56,477 nucleotides of DNA from Chlamydiales bacterium (GCA_035480535.1 DATIHQ010000121.1:1-56477), one strand, 5' to 3'. Numbered from the stretch's first letter, positions 3,737 to 53,138 are shown. Numbers and translations are program-made. The notes: generated by a model not told the origin, from the letters alone.

Positions 3737-4726
3737 CTACAGATGTTCTTCCTTGATGGTCCTTGTTAGAAGCGCTTTGACGGCTTCTCTTGGATCGGCG
3801 GCGTTGAAGATCACTCCATAGGTCGCCTCAGTGATTGGAATGGGAATATTCGCTTTAAGTCCCAATTCGCGAGCGGAAACGCAGGTGTAGATTCCCTCGA
3901 CTGCCATGCCGATTTTCTGACGTGCACCTTCGGGTGAAAACCCTTCGGCAATGAGTTTTCCAAATCGATAATTGCGGCTGTGGCGCGACATGCAAGTGAC
4001 GCAGAGATCTCCCATCCCCGAAAGGCCGTTCAACGTCTCTGGTTTACACTCTTTCACAACGCACAATTTTTTGATTTCATGAAGCCCACGCGTCATCAAA
4101 GCCGCCTTCGCATTATCGCCGTAACCCAACCCATCGGAAATGCCGCATGCAATCGCAATGATGTTTTTCATCGCGCCCCCAAAGCAAACTCCGCGGATAT
4201 CGGCATTGGGATAAATCCGAAAGGTCGGCGTAGTGAAAAGCTCGTGGATCAATTTCATGATCCCGTTTTCATAAGCGGAGCAAACGACCGAAGTAGGTAA
4301 ATTGAGAACCACCTCTTCCGCATGGCTCGGGCCGCTGAGGCACCCCACCAAGGGACTTTCCTTCACTCCGATGATTTCAGAGACCACTTCAGGTAAAAGC
4401 AATCCAGTCCCTTGCTCGATTCCCTTGGAAGTCAAAATCACCGGAACATCGATGGTCCCAATTTCTTGAAATACAGGGCGAATCCCCGAAGAAGTAACGC
4501 TTTCCACTAAGAGATCCGCTCCCTGCGCTGCCTCAGCAAGTACATTTGTAAATCGAATCGAGCGGGGAATGCTGAAATTGGCCAGTTTCGGATGGGTCCG
4601 CTTTTCTTCCAGATGTTTTGCGAGCTCCGGATCGCGCGTCCATGCAATCACTTCATGTCCATTGCCAGCGAGAATTGAAGCCAGAGCTACGCCCCACGTT
4701 CCCGATCCCAAATATCCAATTTTCAT
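3737..4726 (-). CDS. gpsA: NAD(P)H-dependent glycerol-3-phosphate dehydrogenase
   Basis: GSGTWG, SKGIE, SGPSHAEEV, GGAMKNIIAIACG, GLSGMGDLCVTC, SRNYRFG. Confidence 0.96.
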   Translation of the reverse strand: MKIGYLGSGTWGVALASILAGNGHEVIAWTRDPELAKHLEEKRTHPKLANFSIPRSIRFTNVLAEAAQGADLLVESVTSSGIRPVFQEIGTIDVPVILTSKGIEQGTGLLLPEVVSEIIGVKESPLVGCLSGPSHAEEVVLNLPTSVVCSAYENGIMKLIHELFTTPTFRIYPNADIRGVCFGGAMKNIIAIACGISDGLGYGDNAKAALMTRGLHEIKKLCVVKECKPETLNGLSGMGDLCVTCMSRHSRNYRFGKLIAEGFSPEGARQKIGMAVEGIYTCVSARELGLKANIPIPITEATYGVIFNAADPREAVKALLTRTIKEEHL

Positions 4727-6495
4727 ACTGCAAGTGCCTTTTGTACTGCTTCTAAACTCTCTTTATTTTTCAGCGGCGCATAGCAAGTTTCTCTAGAGGC
4801 GCAAATCGCTTCCACCCGCTCCGCATAGGGAAAGGCATCGAAAATAAACTGCTCTCCCTTCCAAATCGAACGCATTTGAGCGCCGATCTGCATCCTCTTT
4901 TGCACCCAATGGATCGGCAATGCAACATTTGCCATCTTTTCAAAAAAAGAAAGGCGAATCGCAAGCTGTCCTGTATTTGCCAAGCGATATTCCCCTAACT
5001 GCTGCGGATCCACTTCTGTATATTCCACCACTTCGATTTTGCCCCGCCGCTCCGCGAGAACTCCCATTGAGTTTTCTTTCCTTTCAATGCATTTGATCAC
5101 AATATCTGCCTCTTTTTCTCGAGCAAAGGCGATAAGCACTGGATCAAAAGGATGTGCCAGTGGGTTATCGACCGGAACCACCGTCACCAAATCGACCCCC
5201 TTCTCCGCAAATCGCTTTACAAGTCCCGATTGGACAAACGAGCGAAAAACACTCCCATTTCCATTGGGCCCCTGCCCCACTTCGCGCCTTTTTTCATCCA
5301 AAAGAGGACTCATCTCCTGCTGAAAGAAGTGAAGATCGAGTCCAAAGAATTGGTGCCGTTCAAAAAAAGAGACCGTCTCTTCGTGATTCAATGGCGATGT
5401 CATCACTGCAATCGGCAAATCCTTCCTTGGAACCTTCTCACATATCCATTGAAAAAGAGCTTTCCCTTGCACACGAAAAAGTCCTTTTGGATAAGAAATT
5501 CCCAGACGAGTTCCCTGTCCGCCCGCTAAAATAATGGCCCCTACATTTCCAATTTCTCTTTTTTCTATCTCTTCAGCCCTCGCACACTTCTTCAAAGGTC
5601 TTCTTGGGAAAATCTGCTCCATCACAACATCCACCGACACTCCAGAAAGATCCCTTCCTTTCCCGATCAAAGGAGTATGAACCAATTGGGGATTGGGAGA
5701 AGGAACTCCCTGCTTTAAAATCCCATGATCTGGATCGGCCCATAAAGAGATGAGATGAATAGGAAAACTCTCATCGAGATAATAAACCATCGATAAAATA
5801 CCCGAATCGGGAAGAATCAGAAATTGGCATCGATTCTTAATGATCGAAAGAAGTTCAAAAAGAGTTGTCTTTCCTCTTAGATCGATTCCGCTAGAAAACT
5901 GCGGCTCATCTCCAAAGCCAAATAAAATCACCTTCACACCCGCTATTTTTTCCAATCGATCGAATAGCTCTTTCCATCTTTCAAGCGGCCAATTGCGCCA
6001 AAGCCCATAATTTGTCTCTGCAGCCACCTGTACACCAATACAAGTCCCCGGCGGGATGGCAAATTTCTTCCAAAGATCCTCATGTTTCGGATCCCACTTC
6101 AGCTTAGGAACCACCCTACCCCTTTGCCACCTCACCCAATCGGTAGGGCTCGGGTTTTCTACTATGAGATCGAATGCTCCGGAATCGATTCCCAGCAAAT
6201 GTAAAGCGCGCTTTACATTGCATTTTTCGCCTCGTTTCCAATTGGGAGCGGCAATCTTTTTTACCCCTTCCAACATCGAAAAACCTTCCTGTAAATTCTC
6301 CCGAATCAAAAAGGTAACTTCGGCATCTGGAATCGTTTCACGGATTCGCTGCACCATCGCATATAATCCAAGCGCAATGTCTCCCAAACCTCGGTTCCAA
6401 CCAAGTAAAATTCTTCGCCCTCCCTTCTTAGCCGTTCGCTTTAACATCCAGTCAAATGGATTGGGCAAAAACAACCGCGCAAAGGTCCTAAACAC
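4723..6495 (-). CDS. Fusion of GT9 (heptosyltransferase-like) glycosyltransferase and UAP1/AGX-type UDP-N-acetylhexosamine pyrophosphorylase
   Basis: N-half: RGLGDIAL, RNWPLERW, DLRGKTTLFEL, PDSG (GT9). C-half: LAGGQGTRLG..PKG, GPNGNG, VDNPL, EQFIFDAF, YAPLKN (UDPGP/UAP family). Single 590-aa uninterrupted ORF. Confidence 0.8.
   Translation of the reverse strand: MFRTFARLFLPNPFDWMLKRTAKKGGRRILLGWNRGLGDIALGLYAMVQRIRETIPDAEVTFLIRENLQEGFSMLEGVKKIAAPNWKRGEKCNVKRALHLLGIDSGAFDLIVENPSPTDWVRWQRGRVVPKLKWDPKHEDLWKKFAIPPGTCIGVQVAAETNYGLWRNWPLERWKELFDRLEKIAGVKVILFGFGDEPQFSSGIDLRGKTTLFELLSIIKNRCQFLILPDSGILSMVYYLDESFPIHLISLWADPDHGILKQGVPSPNPQLVHTPLIGKGRDLSGVSVDVVMEQIFPRRPLKKCARAEEIEKREIGNVGAIILAGGQGTRLGISYPKGLFRVQGKALFQWICEKVPRKDLPIAVMTSPLNHEETVSFFERHQFFGLDLHFFQQEMSPLLDEKRREVGQGPNGNGSVFRSFVQSGLVKRFAEKGVDLVTVVPVDNPLAHPFDPVLIAFAREKEADIVIKCIERKENSMGVLAERRGKIEVVEYTEVDPQQLGEYRLANTGQLAIRLSFFEKMANVALPIHWVQKRMQIGAQMRSIWKGEQFIFDAFPYAERVEAICASRETCYAPLKNKESLEAVQKALAV
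6196..6237. repeat. Palindromic repeat copy 1 (intragenic, in frame)
   Basis: CAAATGTAAAGCGCGCTTTACATTGC at 6196-6221 is identical to 29274-29299; CGCCTCGTTT at 6228-6237 is shared with copy 3. Confidence 0.8.
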
Positions 6496-12434: not shown

Positions 12435-13310
12435 CTAGCAAGAAATTCCGAGCGATTCGCCGAAGTTGGCGCGGGTTTCAAACCCGTTTTTGGTATTTTC
12501 AATGAGATCGGCATCGAATTGCACTCTGTTTTTTTCAAAGAGAAGAACAATGCAAGAGGCGCCAAATTCGAAATATCCTTTTTCTTCCCCTTTTTGCACA
12601 GCGCGATCGGGAGTGTACGTCTGATGAATGCTTCCAACTGACGTCGCTCCGATTTCTATGTAGAGAATCGTTCCATATTCCTCGCTATCGATCTCCGTAA
12701 TCATCCGCTTGTTTTCCCAAAAGATCGAAATTCTCTTCTGCAGCGCAATGGGATTGACCGAATAAAGAAGTCCATTGATAAGATTCGCCTCGCTGGGAAT
12801 GCCATCGCAAGGAAAATGGAAGCGGTGATAATCGCTAGGACAAAGGCGAGCAATTGCCATCGATCCTTCCGCGTAGCGATTCGCAAGCGCCGAATTTTGC
12901 AGAAACTCTTTCAGGGAAAATGGCTGCCCCTTAATCGAGAAACGATCGAATTGGGGATAGATTAGATAACGCCCATCGGCGGGCATTGCGAGGCGGTTCT
13001 TTACGATGGGACGACATTCAGACTTTAGCTTGCGGATGAAGAAATCATTGAATGATTTGAAATTGGATTCTAGAAATTCACTCTCATCAATTCCATACGT
13101 TTCAATAAAGGGTCTGATCTCTTTTGCGCTCTTTTCTTGTCTTTGCAGGTAGCCATACAATTGAGACGCGTAGGGAAATCGGGCAATGAGAGGAAGCATA
13201 ATTCTAGAAAAAAGAGAGCCCCCGTAAAGAAAAGAAAGAGCCTGATGGCCAAAGATCTTCTCCGTACATCTTTGGCCCCCTCTCCGATCTATGTAGATCA
13301 CTTCATTCAT
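12435..13310 (-). CDS. psd: Phosphatidylserine decarboxylase proenzyme
   Basis: SFNDFFIRKLK, PADGR, RLCPSDYHRFHFP, SVNP, EIGATSVGSI, KGEEKGYFEFGASCIV. Confidence 0.93.
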   Translation of the reverse strand: MNEVIYIDRRGGQRCTEKIFGHQALSFLYGGSLFSRIMLPLIARFPYASQLYGYLQRQEKSAKEIRPFIETYGIDESEFLESNFKSFNDFFIRKLKSECRPIVKNRLAMPADGRYLIYPQFDRFSIKGQPFSLKEFLQNSALANRYAEGSMAIARLCPSDYHRFHFPCDGIPSEANLINGLLYSVNPIALQKRISIFWENKRMITEIDSEEYGTILYIEIGATSVGSIHQTYTPDRAVQKGEEKGYFEFGASCIVLLFEKNRVQFDADLIENTKNGFETRANFGESLGISC

Positions 13311-13842
13311 AAATTTTTTCTATTCCTTTACATTCTGTGCGGAGCAAGGAATAAATGCAAAGGTCGAGGAATCTTCCTCTATGAAAAAAAGAGGATCGGG
13401 CAATCCCTTCAAACTGAAATCCAGCCTTTTTGGCCAAATGTAAAGCGGCTTTACAATAGTCTGGAACAGAGAATTGCAGCCTCTCAACTTTCTGTGTAGC
13501 AAAGAGATAACTGCAAAATAAGGGAAGCGCCGCAGCCATGAGTCCCTGCCCGCGATCCTCTCTTTGAAAGATGTAACAGCGCAAATCAAGGCAATCGAAA
13601 AGCTTCTGTTTTTCATACCAAAGAGCTCCCACCAAACGCCCTTCCGGCAAAATAATCAATAGCGTTCCTTTTTCCTCTCCCCAAAAACCAGTTTCATGGA
13701 AATCCTTACGAAATTGATGTTCTGATAAAAGATTGCTGGGAAGATATTCCCCCTTGTGGCGAATGGAATCGAGAACTTGATAGAGTTCAATTAAATCGCC
13801 CTCTTTGACGGTCCGCAGATGAAAGCGTTCATTTTCGATCAT
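13303..13842 (-). CDS. GNAT N-acetyltransferase (RimJ/RimL family)
   Basis: RGQGLM acetyl-CoA motif, KAGFQFEGIAR, 179 aa. Confidence 0.85.
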   Translation of the reverse strand: MIENERFHLRTVKEGDLIELYQVLDSIRHKGEYLPSNLLSEHQFRKDFHETGFWGEEKGTLLIILPEGRLVGALWYEKQKLFDCLDLRCYIFQREDRGQGLMAAALPLFCSYLFATQKVERLQFSVPDYCKAALHLAKKAGFQFEGIARSSFFHRGRFLDLCIYSLLRTECKGIEKIYE

Positions 13843-25432: not shown

Positions 25433-25873
25433 ATGAAAAAAAGAACCTTTCTTCTATTAGAAGTGCTCATTGCGTTACTTCTCGTCATTTGCTGCGCGGT
25501 TCCTCTGGTGACGCAGCCCCTCATTCTCTTTCGCAAAGAAGTAAAGACGCTTGAGGAAGTAGAACAAGAGCGCTTAGCTAATTGGACTTTTACTGAAATC
25601 AAAGAAAAATTATTTAAAAATGAAATTTCTTGGGAAAGGCTCCCCTCCAAAGGCATCACCTCACCTTCTTTTCCCCTTCCTCCAATCGCCCTACAGATCC
25701 CAGGATGCAACTCCAAACCCATGGCTCGCTCTTATACTCTTTCTTGTTCGGGAGAAAAAACGGGGACACATGAAGAGACCTACCGATCATTCTTAGTCAG
25801 AATCGCTATTGGGAATAAAAAAAAATATTCTTACCGCCTCATCGTTCAAAGAAAACCCATTCCTACCCTTTGA
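25433..25873 (+). CDS. Pseudopilin-like protein (CT565-like)
   Basis: Type IV prepilin-like N-terminus KKRTFLLLEVLIALLLV. Confidence 0.75.
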   Translation: MKKRTFLLLEVLIALLLVICCAVPLVTQPLILFRKEVKTLEEVEQERLANWTFTEIKEKLFKNEISWERLPSKGITSPSFPLPPIALQIPGCNSKPMARSYTLSCSGEKTGTHEETYRSFLVRIAIGNKKKYSYRLIVQRKPIPTL

Positions 25874-26732
25874 AATCGACCTTTTTCCGCAGGGAAATGT
25901 GCGTCCTCGGATCTTTCTCGATAAAAGTCAGCTTTGTCAATTTGTGATTTAGATGGCCGAATTTCAATAGAGCATATAGGTCGGGGTCGAGAGAAACGAG
26001 GTGAGCCTCGCTGCAAAGATGTTCAATCCACTCTTGCGTGACAGGCGGATGAGGTTTCTTGTGAATCTCCGCATGAAGTTTCAAGGCGGCTTTGGAACCA
26101 AATAGAACAGTCAGCATGTCGGGGTGAGCATGAAAAAGACACAGTTTTTCATTCACCGGATCCACTTTGATGTAATCGAGAAGAGATGGATAGCCGACAC
26201 CTGCCATTAAATCCCATTCCTTCGTCCCCTTAAGCATCTTGTAATAGAGCGGCTGTAGAGAATCGGGAAAAGAGATCTTTTCCAATACGAAAGGAGATTC
26301 CTTTTGCAGTTTTGCCAAAAGTAACAGCTGATCGAGAAAATAGTATTCAAATCTCGTTTTCTTTTCGAAAAGAGGCTTGTAGAATGTGGCCAGAAGCTTG
26401 GCTGTCAGCTCATAAAGAAGGGGGTGCGCCTCTCTTCCTTCCTGGATCAAGGGCCAAAGATTCAGCCGTGCACATTCTTGATTGAGCTTTGGTCCTTCCT
26501 TTTTTTGCGGAGTCTTCTTTTTATTAGATAGCGTCGAAACGGAAGATTTCCGTTTACCACCCAATTTATTATAAAGTTCACTTTCATAGTGATTCAGGAT
26601 TTTCCGATTCACCTTTTGATGCCCCAAATAGGTCCTTTGAAGGCGATGGGCACCTATTTGCTTTTCCCAGCAGGCGAAAAAGGCATAAGAGAGAATGAGA
26701 AGCAGTGAAAAGATGAGTCCTAAGACATTCAT
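25863..26732 (-). CDS. Hypothetical T2SS-associated protein (CT566-like, possible GspK analogue)
   Basis: N-terminal TM anchor; ATGA coupling with the upstream pseudopilin stop at 26729-26732. Confidence 0.7.
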   Translation of the reverse strand: MNVLGLIFSLLLILSYAFFACWEKQIGAHRLQRTYLGHQKVNRKILNHYESELYNKLGGKRKSSVSTLSNKKKTPQKKEGPKLNQECARLNLWPLIQEGREAHPLLYELTAKLLATFYKPLFEKKTRFEYYFLDQLLLLAKLQKESPFVLEKISFPDSLQPLYYKMLKGTKEWDLMAGVGYPSLLDYIKVDPVNEKLCLFHAHPDMLTVLFGSKAALKLHAEIHKKPHPPVTQEWIEHLCSEAHLVSLDPDLYALLKFGHLNHKLTKLTFIEKDPRTHISLRKKVDFKG

Positions 26733-27367
26733 GACCTGCGCCCTCCTTCCCAATAGGTGATCATGGGTTCAGGAGAGGGAAGGATAAAAGCAAAGCGGAC
26801 GGGATCTTTCTTCTCTTTCCAAACTAAAAGGCGGATGACAGAAGGAGTTTCAAGGCGCGCAATGGGCCAGTTTGAGCGCCACTCTAAAGTGGAGTTGATC
26901 GTCCGTTTTTTCGCCCCTTTTTCTTCGGTTTTCTGCGCGAGGAATTCAAACTCATAATTGGAGACATTCGATAGAAGAATTTCCTTTCTCCAGGAGCGAT
27001 CTTTATCTATGGGCCACGTAGCTAAAACCAATTGCTTTTTTTCATCGAGATAAATCCGTCCCAACACGGTTCCACTGAAAATGGGATCTGGGTCGATTCC
27101 ATTATCAAAAGTGGCCACGAGGCTCGCATTTTTTTCTTCCGGGAATAGCTGGGTATAAAGGGGCGCTTGAAAAGAGGCCCTATCAATGTTGGAAAAGATC
27201 GATTGCAAGCGCATTTGCAAATATTGGCGAGAAGAAATTTCTACGCGGGCTGTTTCCAGTCTTTTTTCAATTTTTGCACTCTCGACGAAGAAAGAGAAAA
27301 GAAAGGTCAATAAAACTGCAGTGAGACTTAAGGCAATCAATATTTCAAGAAGAACAAAATTTCTTAT
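26729..27367 (-). CDS. Pseudopilin (CT567/GspJ-like); start codon non-canonical or lost
   Basis: RNFVLLEILIALSLTAVLL prepilin motif; FDNGIDPDP and G.IYLD segments; no ATG near the motif, ATA at 27367 overlaps the OPT stop. Confidence 0.7.
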   Translation of the reverse strand: MRNFVLLEILIALSLTAVLLTFLFSFFVESAKIEKRLETARVEISSRQYLQMRLQSIFSNIDRASFQAPLYTQLFPEEKNASLVATFDNGIDPDPIFSGTVLGRIYLDEKKQLVLATWPIDKDRSWRKEILLSNVSNYEFEFLAQKTEEKGAKKRTINSTLEWRSNWPIARLETPSVIRLLVWKEKKDPVRFAFILPSPEPMITYWEGGRRS

Positions 27368-29217
27368 TCTTTTTGTTTTCTGATGGAGAAATAGCCGAGT
27401 CCAAGTGCGAGGAGAAGATAGGTCCCGAAGCTGAACCACTGGGACAATTTGCCCGGTGCATCGGCAGGAATCGCGCCCGCAAGGGTGAGGAATGCAATGG
27501 CAATGCCTACACATGCGTCGCCCCCGATAAATCCAGAAGCGAGAAGAACGCCTCGCTCTTGGGCGAGTTCCTGATCCGTATGGCGATTGACATAAGCTCT
27601 CACAAGACCGCCCACCATACTAGCAGCGCTAAGAGATAGTGGCAAATAAACACCTAAAGCAAAGGGTAAAACAGGGATTCCCAAAATCGCCATGATGATC
27701 CCTATCATCACCCCAACCCCGACTAAGGCATAGGGAAGATTGCCGCTAATGACCCCGTTGACCACCATCGACATCAAGGTCGCCTGCGGCGCTGGCATCG
27801 CCTTAGAGCCAATCCCATAGGCTTGATTGAGTAAATAAACAGTATACCCCAGTGCCAAGGCGGGGATAAGGATCCCAATGATCTCAGCAATTTGCTGCGA
27901 GCGGGGGGTTGCCCCCAGGATATAGCCTGTTTTCAGATCTTGGGCCGTTGTGCCGGCTAGGCAAATCGCGCAGCAAGCAACACATCCCATCGACATAGCG
28001 GAAATCAAGTAAATTCTTTCCGTCCAGTTCAATAGAACAAAGACCAAACAAGTCACTAAAAGCACCGTGATCGTCATTCCTGAAGTAGGGTTTGAAGAGG
28101 AGCCGACTAATCCGACAGTCAATGAGGTGACGGCGACAAAGAAAAAGCTCAAAATGACCAACAACACGATCGTCAACAGATTCATTGGAAGGGTAGGGAA
28201 GAGCCATAAGAAAAGGACGATTGCTAACGACCCAAGAAGGAGCCACGCCAGGGAGATATCTCTTTCTGTTCGAGGCAAATGAGCTCTTGCCGCAAATCCG
28301 CCAAACAACTCTTTAAAACTCATGTGGATTGTTCGATATAAGAGGGGGATAATCTTAAACAAACTTAAGATCCCTCCCACCGCCAAAGTTCCTGCACCAA
28401 TGTATCTCACATAATGATTCCAAATATCATCTGCAGACATCGCTCCTACGGGAGTCGTCGATGGATAAACCGCTTCGCTTCCCAATCCAAAGGTAGAAAT
28501 TAACGGAATAATCACCCACCAAGCGAGAAGGCTGCCGGAAAACATCAATGCGGTGATCTTTGGACCGATGATATACCCAACGCCTAAAAGAGCTGGCGTC
28601 GCATCGAGGCTGAACTCTGTTTTTTTAAAGAACCCAAACGTCCAATTGACTGTTTCTGACCAAAGATAAATGCCGTTGGAGCAAATCTTGTAAACCCCTG
28701 CCGCCAAAAAACCCCAGGAAGCCATAATGGCCGATTTTCGGCTCTTCTGCCCAGATTTTAAGATTTCGGCGCAGGCGGTTCCTTCAGGAAAGGGCAATTT
28801 TTTATGTTCTTCGACAATGATATAGCGCCGCATGGGGATCATCAGCAAAATCCCCAGAAGACCTCCCATGCAGGAAAGGATGAAAATTCGCCCGATTGAA
28901 GGAGTCTCTCCCAACAGAATCAGAGCGGGGATTGTAAAAATGACCCCAGCTGCCAATCCTTCCCCCACCGTCGCAATTGTTTGGACGATGTTATTTTCAA
29001 GAATGGTCACATCCCGGAACATCACTCTTAAAATGGCCATCGACATAATCGCTGCAGGAATAGAGGCGGAAATAGTGGTTCCAATCTTTAAAGCCAGGTA
29101 TGCATTTGCTACAGCGAAGAAAAACCCGAAGATCATTCCAAGGATTATCGCCCGCGGCGTAAATTCCCGCATCACGGTGCCTGCCGAAACATGGGGATGG
29201 AAGGTTTCATGGGTCAT
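27364..29217 (-). CDS. OPT-family oligopeptide / metal-chelate transporter
   Basis: REFTPRAIILG, YLALKIG.TISASIPAA, ENNIVQT, LPFPEGTACAE, QDLKTG, PAPQATLM, LLASGFIGG. Confidence 0.93.
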   Translation of the reverse strand: MTHETFHPHVSAGTVMREFTPRAIILGMIFGFFFAVANAYLALKIGTTISASIPAAIMSMAILRVMFRDVTILENNIVQTIATVGEGLAAGVIFTIPALILLGETPSIGRIFILSCMGGLLGILLMIPMRRYIIVEEHKKLPFPEGTACAEILKSGQKSRKSAIMASWGFLAAGVYKICSNGIYLWSETVNWTFGFFKKTEFSLDATPALLGVGYIIGPKITALMFSGSLLAWWVIIPLISTFGLGSEAVYPSTTPVGAMSADDIWNHYVRYIGAGTLAVGGILSLFKIIPLLYRTIHMSFKELFGGFAARAHLPRTERDISLAWLLLGSLAIVLFLWLFPTLPMNLLTIVLLVILSFFFVAVTSLTVGLVGSSSNPTSGMTITVLLVTCLVFVLLNWTERIYLISAMSMGCVACCAICLAGTTAQDLKTGYILGATPRSQQIAEIIGILIPALALGYTVYLLNQAYGIGSKAMPAPQATLMSMVVNGVISGNLPYALVGVGVMIGIIMAILGIPVLPFALGVYLPLSLSAASMVGGLVRAYVNRHTDQELAQERGVLLASGFIGGDACVGIAIAFLTLAGAIPADAPGKLSQWFSFGTYLLLALGLGYFSIRKQKE

Positions 29218-29273: not shown

Positions 29274-29333
29274 CAAATGTAAAGCGCGCTTTACATTGCC
29301 TTTGGGGCCCCCGAAAATCGCCTTATTTTTTGG
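29274..29333. repeat. Palindromic repeat copy 2 (contains histidine kinase stop codon)
   Basis: CAAATGTAAAGCGCGCTTTACATTG-CCTTT-GGGGCCCCCGAAAA-T-CGCCT-TA-TTTTTTGG; matches copy 3 in reverse orientation. Confidence 0.88.
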
Positions 29334-52330: not shown

Positions 52331-53121
52331 GTGAGCCAGTTGCAAAACCCCAATTTCAGCCCAAATCCGCGCTTTTGCCGCCGGATTCGGTCCCGTCGCA
52401 AATCGCCTATGGCCTTTCGGATATGTCAATTTGCGACGAGCGCGAACCGACGCCAAAATCATCGAATTTGTGCAAGAAAGCGGGTTTTGCAACTGGCTCT
52501 GTCAACTGGCACCAGCAATGGGCCCTCTTCGCCCAAAACTTTCATCACGGCAAAGCCCACATCTCCCTCGCCCCCTATAATTCTCCCCACACCCTCCGCC
52601 TCCTTCCCGGCCCAGGTTTCGGCGACCTCTCTCATCCCACCACACAACTCATGCTCTCCCTCATGCATCCCCACATCGCCAACCAACCCATCCTCGATAT
52701 CGGCACTGGCAGCGGCATTCTCACCCTCGCCGCCCTCCTCCTCGGCGCCCGCTCCGCCATCGGCATCGACATCGACCCCTCCGCCCTCACCCACGCCCGC
52801 GCCAACGCCCGCCTCAACAATCTTACTCCCCACTTCTCCCTCACCCTCCCGAAAACCCTCCCCCCGCAAAACATCCTCCTCCTCAACATGATCTTCCCCG
52901 AGCAGAAAATAGTGAATCCTCCCACCCTCAATCCCCACGCCAAACTCTGGATCGTCTCAGGCATCCTCGCCGAGCAGAAAAAAGCCTACCTACAACAAAC
53001 AGAACAATGGGGATGGACCCCTCTTTCAGAGCACACAAAAGACGGTTGGATGGGATGGATTTTCACATGTAAATTACCCCAAAAAACGAGGCGTTTTTCG
53101 GGGGCCCCTACCCAAATGTAA
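52327..53121 (+). CDS. prmA: Ribosomal protein L11 methyltransferase-like
   Basis: PGPGFGDLSHPTT, LDIGTGSGIL, GIDID, SGIL; ATGA overlap with the trkH stop. Confidence 0.8.
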   Translation: MSEPVAKPQFQPKSALLPPDSVPSQIAYGLSDMSICDEREPTPKSSNLCKKAGFATGSVNWHQQWALFAQNFHHGKAHISLAPYNSPHTLRLLPGPGFGDLSHPTTQLMLSLMHPHIANQPILDIGTGSGILTLAALLLGARSAIGIDIDPSALTHARANARLNNLTPHFSLTLPKTLPPQNILLLNMIFPEQKIVNPPTLNPHAKLWIVSGILAEQKKAYLQQTEQWGWTPLSEHTKDGWMGWIFTCKLPQKTRRFSGAPTQM

Positions 53122-53138
53122 AGCGCGCTTTACATTTG
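53079..53138. repeat. Palindromic repeat copy 3 (supplies prmA C-terminus and stop)
   Basis: CCAAAAAA-CG-AGGCG-T-TTTTCGGGGGCCCC-TACC-CAAATGTAAAGCGCGCTTTACATTTG; 26-bp perfect palindrome at 53113-53138. Confidence 0.88.

Follow-up and report, generated by a model that had tools for sequence, protein, structure and literature searches.

Rickettsia palindromic elements (RPEs) are repeats of 100-150 bp that insert in frame into genes and make new peptide segments, adding 30-50 residues. ParB, the partner of the parS palindromes, is missing from many chlamydiae, and the organisation and segregation of their chromosomes are poorly understood. Here we analyse a palindromic repeat at positions 6196-6221 of a 56,477-nt stretch of DNA from a Chlamydiales bacterium (GCA_035480535.1 DATIHQ010000121.1:1-56477), the whole of which we call the window. 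The repeat is translated in frame inside a gene for a protein with a GT9-fold domain, and a sequence-only reading had proposed that it was recruited into the protein as RPEs are. We show that the palindrome instead replaces the codons of a short native alpha-helix base for base, leaving the length unchanged and retaining the pattern V-K-x-x-L. The explanation that we favour, and judge moderately probable, is that a DNA-level signal, a putative protein-bound mark of the origin domain, has been overwritten on coding sequence as a copied tract, with the peptide as its passenger.

The window comes from a metagenome-assembled genome of 1.76 Mb in 121 contigs, 91% complete (G000). The features at the site are these.

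4723-6495, minus strand: host gene, 590 aa, with a GT9-fold domain (about residues 1-300) and a UDPGP-type nucleotidyltransferase (308-586).
6196-6221, no strand: 26-nt palindromic tract CAAATGTAAAGCGCGCTTTACATTGC, with a perfect 18-nt core at 6200-6217.
6196-6216, minus strand: codons of helix V94-L100 of the GT9-fold N-domain, from DSSP on the model and the alignment to 3tov.
6196-6225, minus strand: probable copied tract of 30 nt, on the coding strand AAATGCAA/core/TTTG, equal to the perfect-palindrome (P) end of the composite copy G000:C68:23309.
6228-6237, minus strand: CGCCTCGTTT, the reverse complement of AAACGAGGCG, codons of the conserved W-K-R-G-E motif, native and outside the repeat.

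The 26-mer CAAATGTAAAGCGCGCTTTACATTGC is exactly repeated at 29274-29299, as the sequence-only reading had stated. Its 18-nt core TGTAAAGCGCGCTTTACA occurs at 6200, 29278 and 53117 in the window and in none of 100 shuffles, and the whole assembly has 12 exact copies against none of the reversed pattern; these controls rule out a chance origin of the repeat. The open reading frame (ORF) 4723-6495 reads NWKRGEKCNVKRALHLLGID across the site on the minus strand (the surrounding stretch of protein is also given as APNWKRGEKCNVKRALHLLGIDSGAFDL) with no stop through its 590 codons, and 6196-6221 translates as CNVKRALHL (C92 to L100), so that the in-frame translation claimed for the repeat is borne out. 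An independent assembly of a congener (Logan SRR29230223), in which the host gene is 88% identical to the window in amino acids and 86% in nucleotides, has the identical 18-mer on the same codons. Because that independent assembly carries the same site, an assembly artefact is ruled out.

The C-terminal half of the host protein (residues 308-586) is a UDPGP-type nucleotidyltransferase, PF01704. The N-terminal half had been called a GT9 domain. The Pfam GT9 family PF01075 gives no match to the host protein at E<=0.01, but a profile of the N-domain from 18 orthologues matches the heptosyltransferase structures 1psw (2e-6) and 3tov (9e-5), and the best Foldseek matches of its AlphaFold model (predicted local distance difference test, pLDDT, 91.5; predicted template modelling score 0.88) are 3tov, 1psw and WaaC, with template modelling scores of about 0.55-0.60. 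The label is therefore right at the level of the fold, though not as a Pfam assignment; precomputed PF01075 annotation is present on some homologues. Of 41 related genomes, all belonging to other genera, 40 have an orthologue of the host gene. The two domains share one ORF in G000, G001, G002, G005 and others and form separate adjacent ORFs in G011, G013, G007 and G020, which indicates gene fusion or fission within the family.

Aligning the N-domain of the window with those 18 orthologues (19 sequences, the 18 from other genera) decides between insertion and replacement. The spacing from WKRGE to LGID is 10 residues in the window and in every close orthologue, with no length difference. Where the window has KCNVKRALHL, orthologues have APSVKESLQK, AVDVKKTLLE, KVDVKETLRQ or TYSVQKTLAK; the V-K-x-x-L pattern is kept in the same-length segments of all 18, and the peptide encoded by the palindrome obeys the family pattern x-[DN]-[VI]-K-x-[TA]-L-x-x-L. 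The proposed insertion led one to expect the segment in a surface loop. In the AlphaFold model VKRALHL is instead predicted to form helix 94-100 of a Rossmann-like N-domain (DSSP; pLDDT of the block 93), between strands 78-83 and 110-112, and this helix aligns with the equivalent helix of the GT9 structure 3tov; the segment would therefore be a native element of secondary structure rather than a surface-loop addition. Given the same length in the orthologues and the native helix, zero residues were gained and eight helix codons were rewritten.

An in-frame insertion of a palindromic mobile element that makes a new peptide in the GT9 domain, as in RPEs, is thus an explanation to which we give hardly any credence for this gene. 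The site is an exact, translated family member, and a relative has a whole composite element within recD where the recD of the source assembly has a solo palindrome (see below), as that explanation would have it. Against it stand the 18 orthologues of equal length with V, K and L retained, the segment being, in the model, a native helix of the fold, and the flank shared with another copy, which is the native WKRGE motif. Orthologues without the exact 18-mer have at this position a homologous peptide of the same length, which speaks against insertion, but not an identical one. For the GT9-like gene the outcome is sobering, since the protein gained no segment and a DNA-level signal dictates eight codons of an enzyme. 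The more general lesson is that a repeat in frame needs an orthologue comparison before an insertion is called.

The flank CGCCTCGTTT, described as shared with the third copy in the window, had been counted with the repeat. The sequence is indeed present beside that copy, at 53084-53093 on the other strand. It is ruled out as part of the repeat: it encodes the conserved WKRGE, is present at 8-9 of 10 positions in orthologues without the palindrome, has a synonymous change in the congener (CGG for CGA), and lies 7 nt from the palindrome in the host gene against 20 nt in the element. Its likeness to the loop CGAGGCG of the module may be coincidence or microhomology.

The palindrome belongs to a family that we define as TGTAAAGC-N(1-2)-GCTTTACA, that is, palindromic half-sites around one or two central bases. 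The source assembly has 22 such sites. A genome-wide count of intragenic copies had been proposed as a check, and it places 13 of the 22 inside long ORFs. The classes of sites and the other copies in the window are the following.

17-mers TGTAAAGC-N-GCTTTACA: 9 copies, 8 in long ORFs.
18-mers with a GC centre: 12 copies, 4 in long ORFs.
18-mer with a TG centre: 1 copy, in a long ORF (another GT9 gene).
13439-13455, no strand: fourth site of the window, the 17-mer TGTAAAGCGGCTTTACA, in a 179-aa ORF (13303-13842, minus strand), reading CKAALHL.
29274-29333, plus strand: intergenic composite copy (palindrome and GGGGCCCCCGAAAATCGCC hairpin module).
53072-53138, minus strand: intergenic composite copy, oppositely oriented, whose second palindrome is decayed.

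The GC centre is common to 12 of the 13 18-mers, and the centre base of the 17-mers is free. Among the site-bearing ORFs are those for a secretin, a class-V aminotransferase, a SIS isomerase, a D-Ala-D-Ala carboxypeptidase, GT10, LplA/B and GT9; seven host ORFs have Pfam families, and the two without a match are conserved in relatives. By its motif the 179-aa ORF appears GNAT-like. Glycosyltransferases recur among the site-bearing genes (GT9 twice, GT2-like, GT10, and GT4-like in G005 and G011). The second GT9 gene, at G000:C68:11597-11614, has TGTAAAGCTGGCTTTACA, read as YVKLALHL, in its C-terminal domain, within the canonical 'W-P-x-E-x-x-x-x-L-a' helix.

Overlay without insertion or deletion is a general rule for the motif. 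Five same-length overlays are found besides the host gene: the gene at C68:8689, window 13439, and in G003 lipA, an M24 peptidase gene and the site at 65112. The C68:8689 gene is conserved in 29 of 31 relatives; where it encodes YVKRALHL, relatives have ASKKILEG or AAKQISFF at the same length, and the G003 orthologue of the 179-aa ORF has SKPALAL at the site, again at the same length. When G003 and the window are compared (lipA, M24 peptidase, 65112 and 13439), the partner lacking the site differs from the site at 6-8 of 16 positions. A GT2-like gene has NVKRALH-C against WLxxGEYKKW elsewhere and is 2 residues shorter; its G001 orthologue has a 17-mer at the same place. Two further cases concern other genera. 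The rpoN (sigma-54) gene of G005 contains a 26-bp perfect palindrome, GGTTTGTAAAGCGCGCTTTACAAACC (G005:C48:12190-12215; L021:997-1022), that reads FVKRALQT, and its neighbour is the orthologue of the site-bearing C68:8689 gene of G000. An orthologous glycosyltransferase-like gene has TGTAAAGCGGGCTTTACA on the same codons (CKAGFT) in two genera (G005:C48:79586 and G011:C40:40179; L022/L023, 1001-1018), with all synonymous positions identical despite diverged flanks.

True insertion is seen in recD. In G000 a solo palindrome reads QCKARFT in a loop of variable length. In G002, a sister genus (G002:C102; L061:1477-1560), the whole composite (imperfect palindrome P', hairpin module and P, of the 17-mer type) is in frame as QCKAAIQNPKDDAFSGTPYKCKAALHLEDG, occupies a loop whose length in other genera is 0-7 residues, and aligns base by base with the composites of G000. 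An RPE-like insertion therefore exists in this group, but not in the GT9-like gene.

The copy at 6196-6221 was probably written from another family member. The 30 nt at 6196-6225 are identical to the composite copy C68:23309, the longest exact identity among the 66 pairs of 18-mers. The identity extends into the asymmetric flanks GCAA...TTTG, the usual neighbours of the composite's perfect palindrome on its inner and outer sides, which 4-5 composite copies have in common. The unusual Cys92 codon derives from this composite-type flank. Where the sister genera have 17-mers (the GT2-like gene in G001, recD in G002), G000 has GC-centre 18-mers with compensating indels nearby, which implies homogenisation. 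The common GC centre, the 30-nt identity with its flanks and these homogenised sites favour copying over stepwise point mutation. We propose that ectopic conversion of a short tract, or template switching, would have copied about 26-30 nt from a family member, that independent point mutations or insertion would not be the route of origin for this copy, and that the copied tract may have survived because the encoded NVKRALHL fits the helix. Since the congener has the identical site, the writing event is not recent. The congener keeps all 8 palindrome codons, for which about 0.03 is expected by chance from the measured substitution rates, and the longest identical run of the whole gene between the two, 36 nt, covers the site.

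Beyond the source assembly, we scanned 251 chlamydial genomes of 144 genera with the pattern TGTAAAGC-N(0-2)-GCTTTACA and, as a control, with the reversed pattern. The motif is present in 108 genomes and 64 genera, with 0 to 92 copies per genome (92 in G130), and the control gives 0 in every genome. Outside chlamydiae (596 Gb), the exact 18-mer was found only as scattered single matches, in about the number expected by chance. A search within one library of papers found none of four 17-mers, and nothing pertinent for ParB/parS in Chlamydia. We regard the chlamydial palindrome family as a previously undescribed DNA signal.

In two complete genomes, from two families, the sites gather around the origin as defined by GC skew. 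G044 has its two sites at 463 and 475 kb, close to the change of skew from negative to positive at 438-450 kb. G157 belongs to another family; of its 19 sites, 15 are spaced 10-20 kb apart over 104-385 kb of contig C2, a stretch that includes the skew switch at about 270-300 kb. Genomes of the genus g58, which are Chlamydia-sized, carry 1-3 sites each, typically a pair separated by 12.4 or 17.3 kb; two g58 species retain the 16 specified bases on the same codons of an orthologue that has diverged strongly (AVKQLY versus NVKRLY). In the source assembly, 14 of the 22 sites are on five contigs totalling 193 kb, with 14 same-contig pairs where 3.75 would be expected (P=0.002). A collinear stretch of G003:C20 (19.4-79.3 kb) has 5 sites to the window's 4, with zero orthologous positions, which shows that regional site density is conserved between genera and that individual positions turn over. 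Within this collinear region there is a 3.4-kb inversion (window 25860-29215 versus G003:C20:53622-56989), and the composite at 29278 abuts one of its breakpoints. We rejected a palindrome-mediated inversion, as the other breakpoint has no partner site in either the window genome or G003.

The chief rival is that the palindrome and its module form a selfish or neutral repeat, similar to bacterial interspersed mosaic elements (BIMEs) of repetitive extragenic palindromes (REPs) or to miniature inverted-repeat transposable elements, spread without host function, so that intragenic copies are accidents tolerated where the peptide fits. We consider this rather unlikely. In its favour is the organisation of the repeat. 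Eight of the GC-centre 18-mers are intergenic, mostly terminating a composite, which consists of the imperfect palindrome P' (TGTAAAGCGCGCAATACA), a hairpin module (CCCCAAAAACCGAGGCGATTTTCGGGGGCCCC) and the perfect palindrome, with centres 61 nt apart, and which is present at at least 7 loci in G000. The identical GC centre in 12 copies, the copy number of 0-92 between genomes, the occurrence of the P' variant in 3 genera (9 of 103 family genomes), the 60-nt tandem arrays in G309 and the whole module in frame within recD of G002 are also what such a repeat would give, and Y1 transposase genes (PF01797) were found in 8 of 12 genomes tested, mostly site-rich ones. On the other side, Y1_Tnp is absent from G000, from G130 with its 92 sites, and from G317 and G048, and the four Y1 genes examined have no flanking palindrome. 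Eight of the nine 17-mers in G000 are solitary, intragenic and free of the module. Transposition would not give same-length overlays, and a selfish repeat would account poorly for the concentration of sites at the skew-defined origin in two families or for the Chlamydia-genus genomes that keep 1-3 sites at orthologous codons while the flanking protein has strongly diverged. Isolated half-sites, sought as the mark of a transposon, were not found; half-sites lie nearly all within palindromes.

At G309:C22 (L148:1441-1757), five tandem 60-nt units (palindrome and GGGGCCCCC hairpin) are followed by a terminal palindrome in a BIME-like layout; shorter arrays, of 2-3 units, are found at further loci in G309 and in G317. 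A single-copy Y1 transposase gene (G157:C2:294781-295146; L179) is located at the GC-skew switch of G157, in the middle of the 280-kb site cluster, with no palindrome within 1.5 kb.

Another alternative is that the palindrome works at the RNA level rather than as a DNA site, forming an mRNA hairpin that affects stability, pausing or termination. Intergenic copies are often directly 3' of genes, and in one orientation the module next to the palindrome has a stem that tolerates G:U pairs, as would suit an RNA element. The predicted hairpin is weak, however (intragenic copy, -7.1 kcal/mol; 17-mer, -4.1), and the former value, calculated as single-stranded DNA, argues against a structural role in either RNA or DNA. 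The sequence itself, beyond its pairing, is invariant across the phylum; no compensatory changes that keep pairing and alter sequence were seen; and the sites are in genes of either strand, clustered by chromosome region. We regard an RNA-level role as highly improbable.

Returning to an overwritten DNA signal, we predict that the motif is bound by a dimeric protein with sequence specificity for it, which would mark or organise the origin-proximal chromosome. ParB is excluded as that binder here because it is absent from the assembly, which is 91% complete. The ParB domain PF02195 has no match in G000, G130, G157, G033 or G030 (it is present in genus g58 and in G040); a tblastn search of G000 with two chlamydial ParB proteins found nothing (best E 0.058); and the canonical parS TGTTNCACGTGAAACA was not found in G000, where the sole match has 2 mismatches. 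Tentatively, and with considerable doubt, we suggest that a ParB-independent chlamydial system marks the origin domain with the 17/18-bp palindrome, its new sites being written by short-tract copying, besides any selected from point mutations, in the manner of a domesticated selfish repeat. Such a system would overwrite the DNA of helices with protein length unchanged (the GT9-like gene and C68:8689), homogenise old sites from 17-mers to 18-mers (recD and the GT2-like gene) and rarely insert the 60-nt module (recD of G002). A palindrome that a phylum keeps in exact form, that is concentrated at the origin and that constrains or overwrites coding DNA offers a bait for its binder and a means of recognising the origin domain when metagenome assemblies are fragmented.

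Several observations weigh against an origin-domain signal written by copying. The exact site is missing from 143 of the 251 genomes, which, together with the range of copy numbers, is odd for an essential organising site. The palindrome also ends a module of about 60 nt that is dispersed and arrayed in tandem, and in this it resembles selfish DNA. G000, with its 121 contigs, shows contig clustering only, and the window has no skew switch. As to copying, the 36-nt run shared with the congener barely exceeds other runs in the gene (33, 31 and 31 nt), and no flanking homology beyond the CGAGGCG likeness was found that would explain a length-neutral conversion tract.

How the chlamydial sites compare with described systems can be set out in turn. 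The uptake signal sequences of Pasteurellaceae and DNA uptake sequences of Neisseriaceae are alike in sequence pattern: an exact DNA word lies in genes without indels where the peptide is tolerated, and inverted pairs stand after genes. They differ in having hundreds to thousands of genome-wide copies, where the chlamydial sites number 1-92 and are clustered. REPs and BIMEs, with their REP-associated tyrosine transposases (RAYTs), share short palindromes, mosaic units with linker hairpins, tandem arrays (as in G309) and dispersed copies that show signs of concerted evolution; REPs are extragenic, whereas 13 of the 22 sites here are intragenic. RAYT (PF01797) was not found in G000, and the four Y1 loci examined in relatives have no palindrome within about 1.5 kb. 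We rejected a REP/RAYT system since Y1 transposases, although found in many site-rich relatives, are lacking in G000, G130 and G048, and those examined are not flanked by palindromes.

The likeness to parS/ParB, and also to the pairs NBS/Noc, matS/MatP and SBS/SlmA (NBS and SBS being the Noc- and SlmA-binding sites), is in the short perfect or near-perfect palindrome with TGT...ACA ends, in a few to tens of copies within one chromosomal domain, here around the origin, and in sites that are often intragenic same-length overlays, with a phylum-wide sequence and shifting positions. The clustering at the origin is seen by GC skew in G044 and G157, and in G000 as contig clustering only. The half-sites differ, the chlamydial TGTAAAGC bearing no relation to TGTTNCAC of parS. 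Spacing in the chlamydial sites is odd or variable (8-N1-8 or 8-N2-8), G000 and several site-rich genomes lack ParB_N, and chlamydial copies also ride on a dispersed, array-forming 60-nt module. With RPEs, finally, the chlamydial repeats share a palindromic family in an obligate intracellular bacterium, many copies translated in frame, and, in recD of G002, a real in-frame insertion of the composite. They differ in that the tract in the host gene is 26-30 nt long, adds zero residues, replaces a native helix and is without the hairpin module of the composite, and in that the chlamydial core is conserved phylum-wide and regionally clustered.

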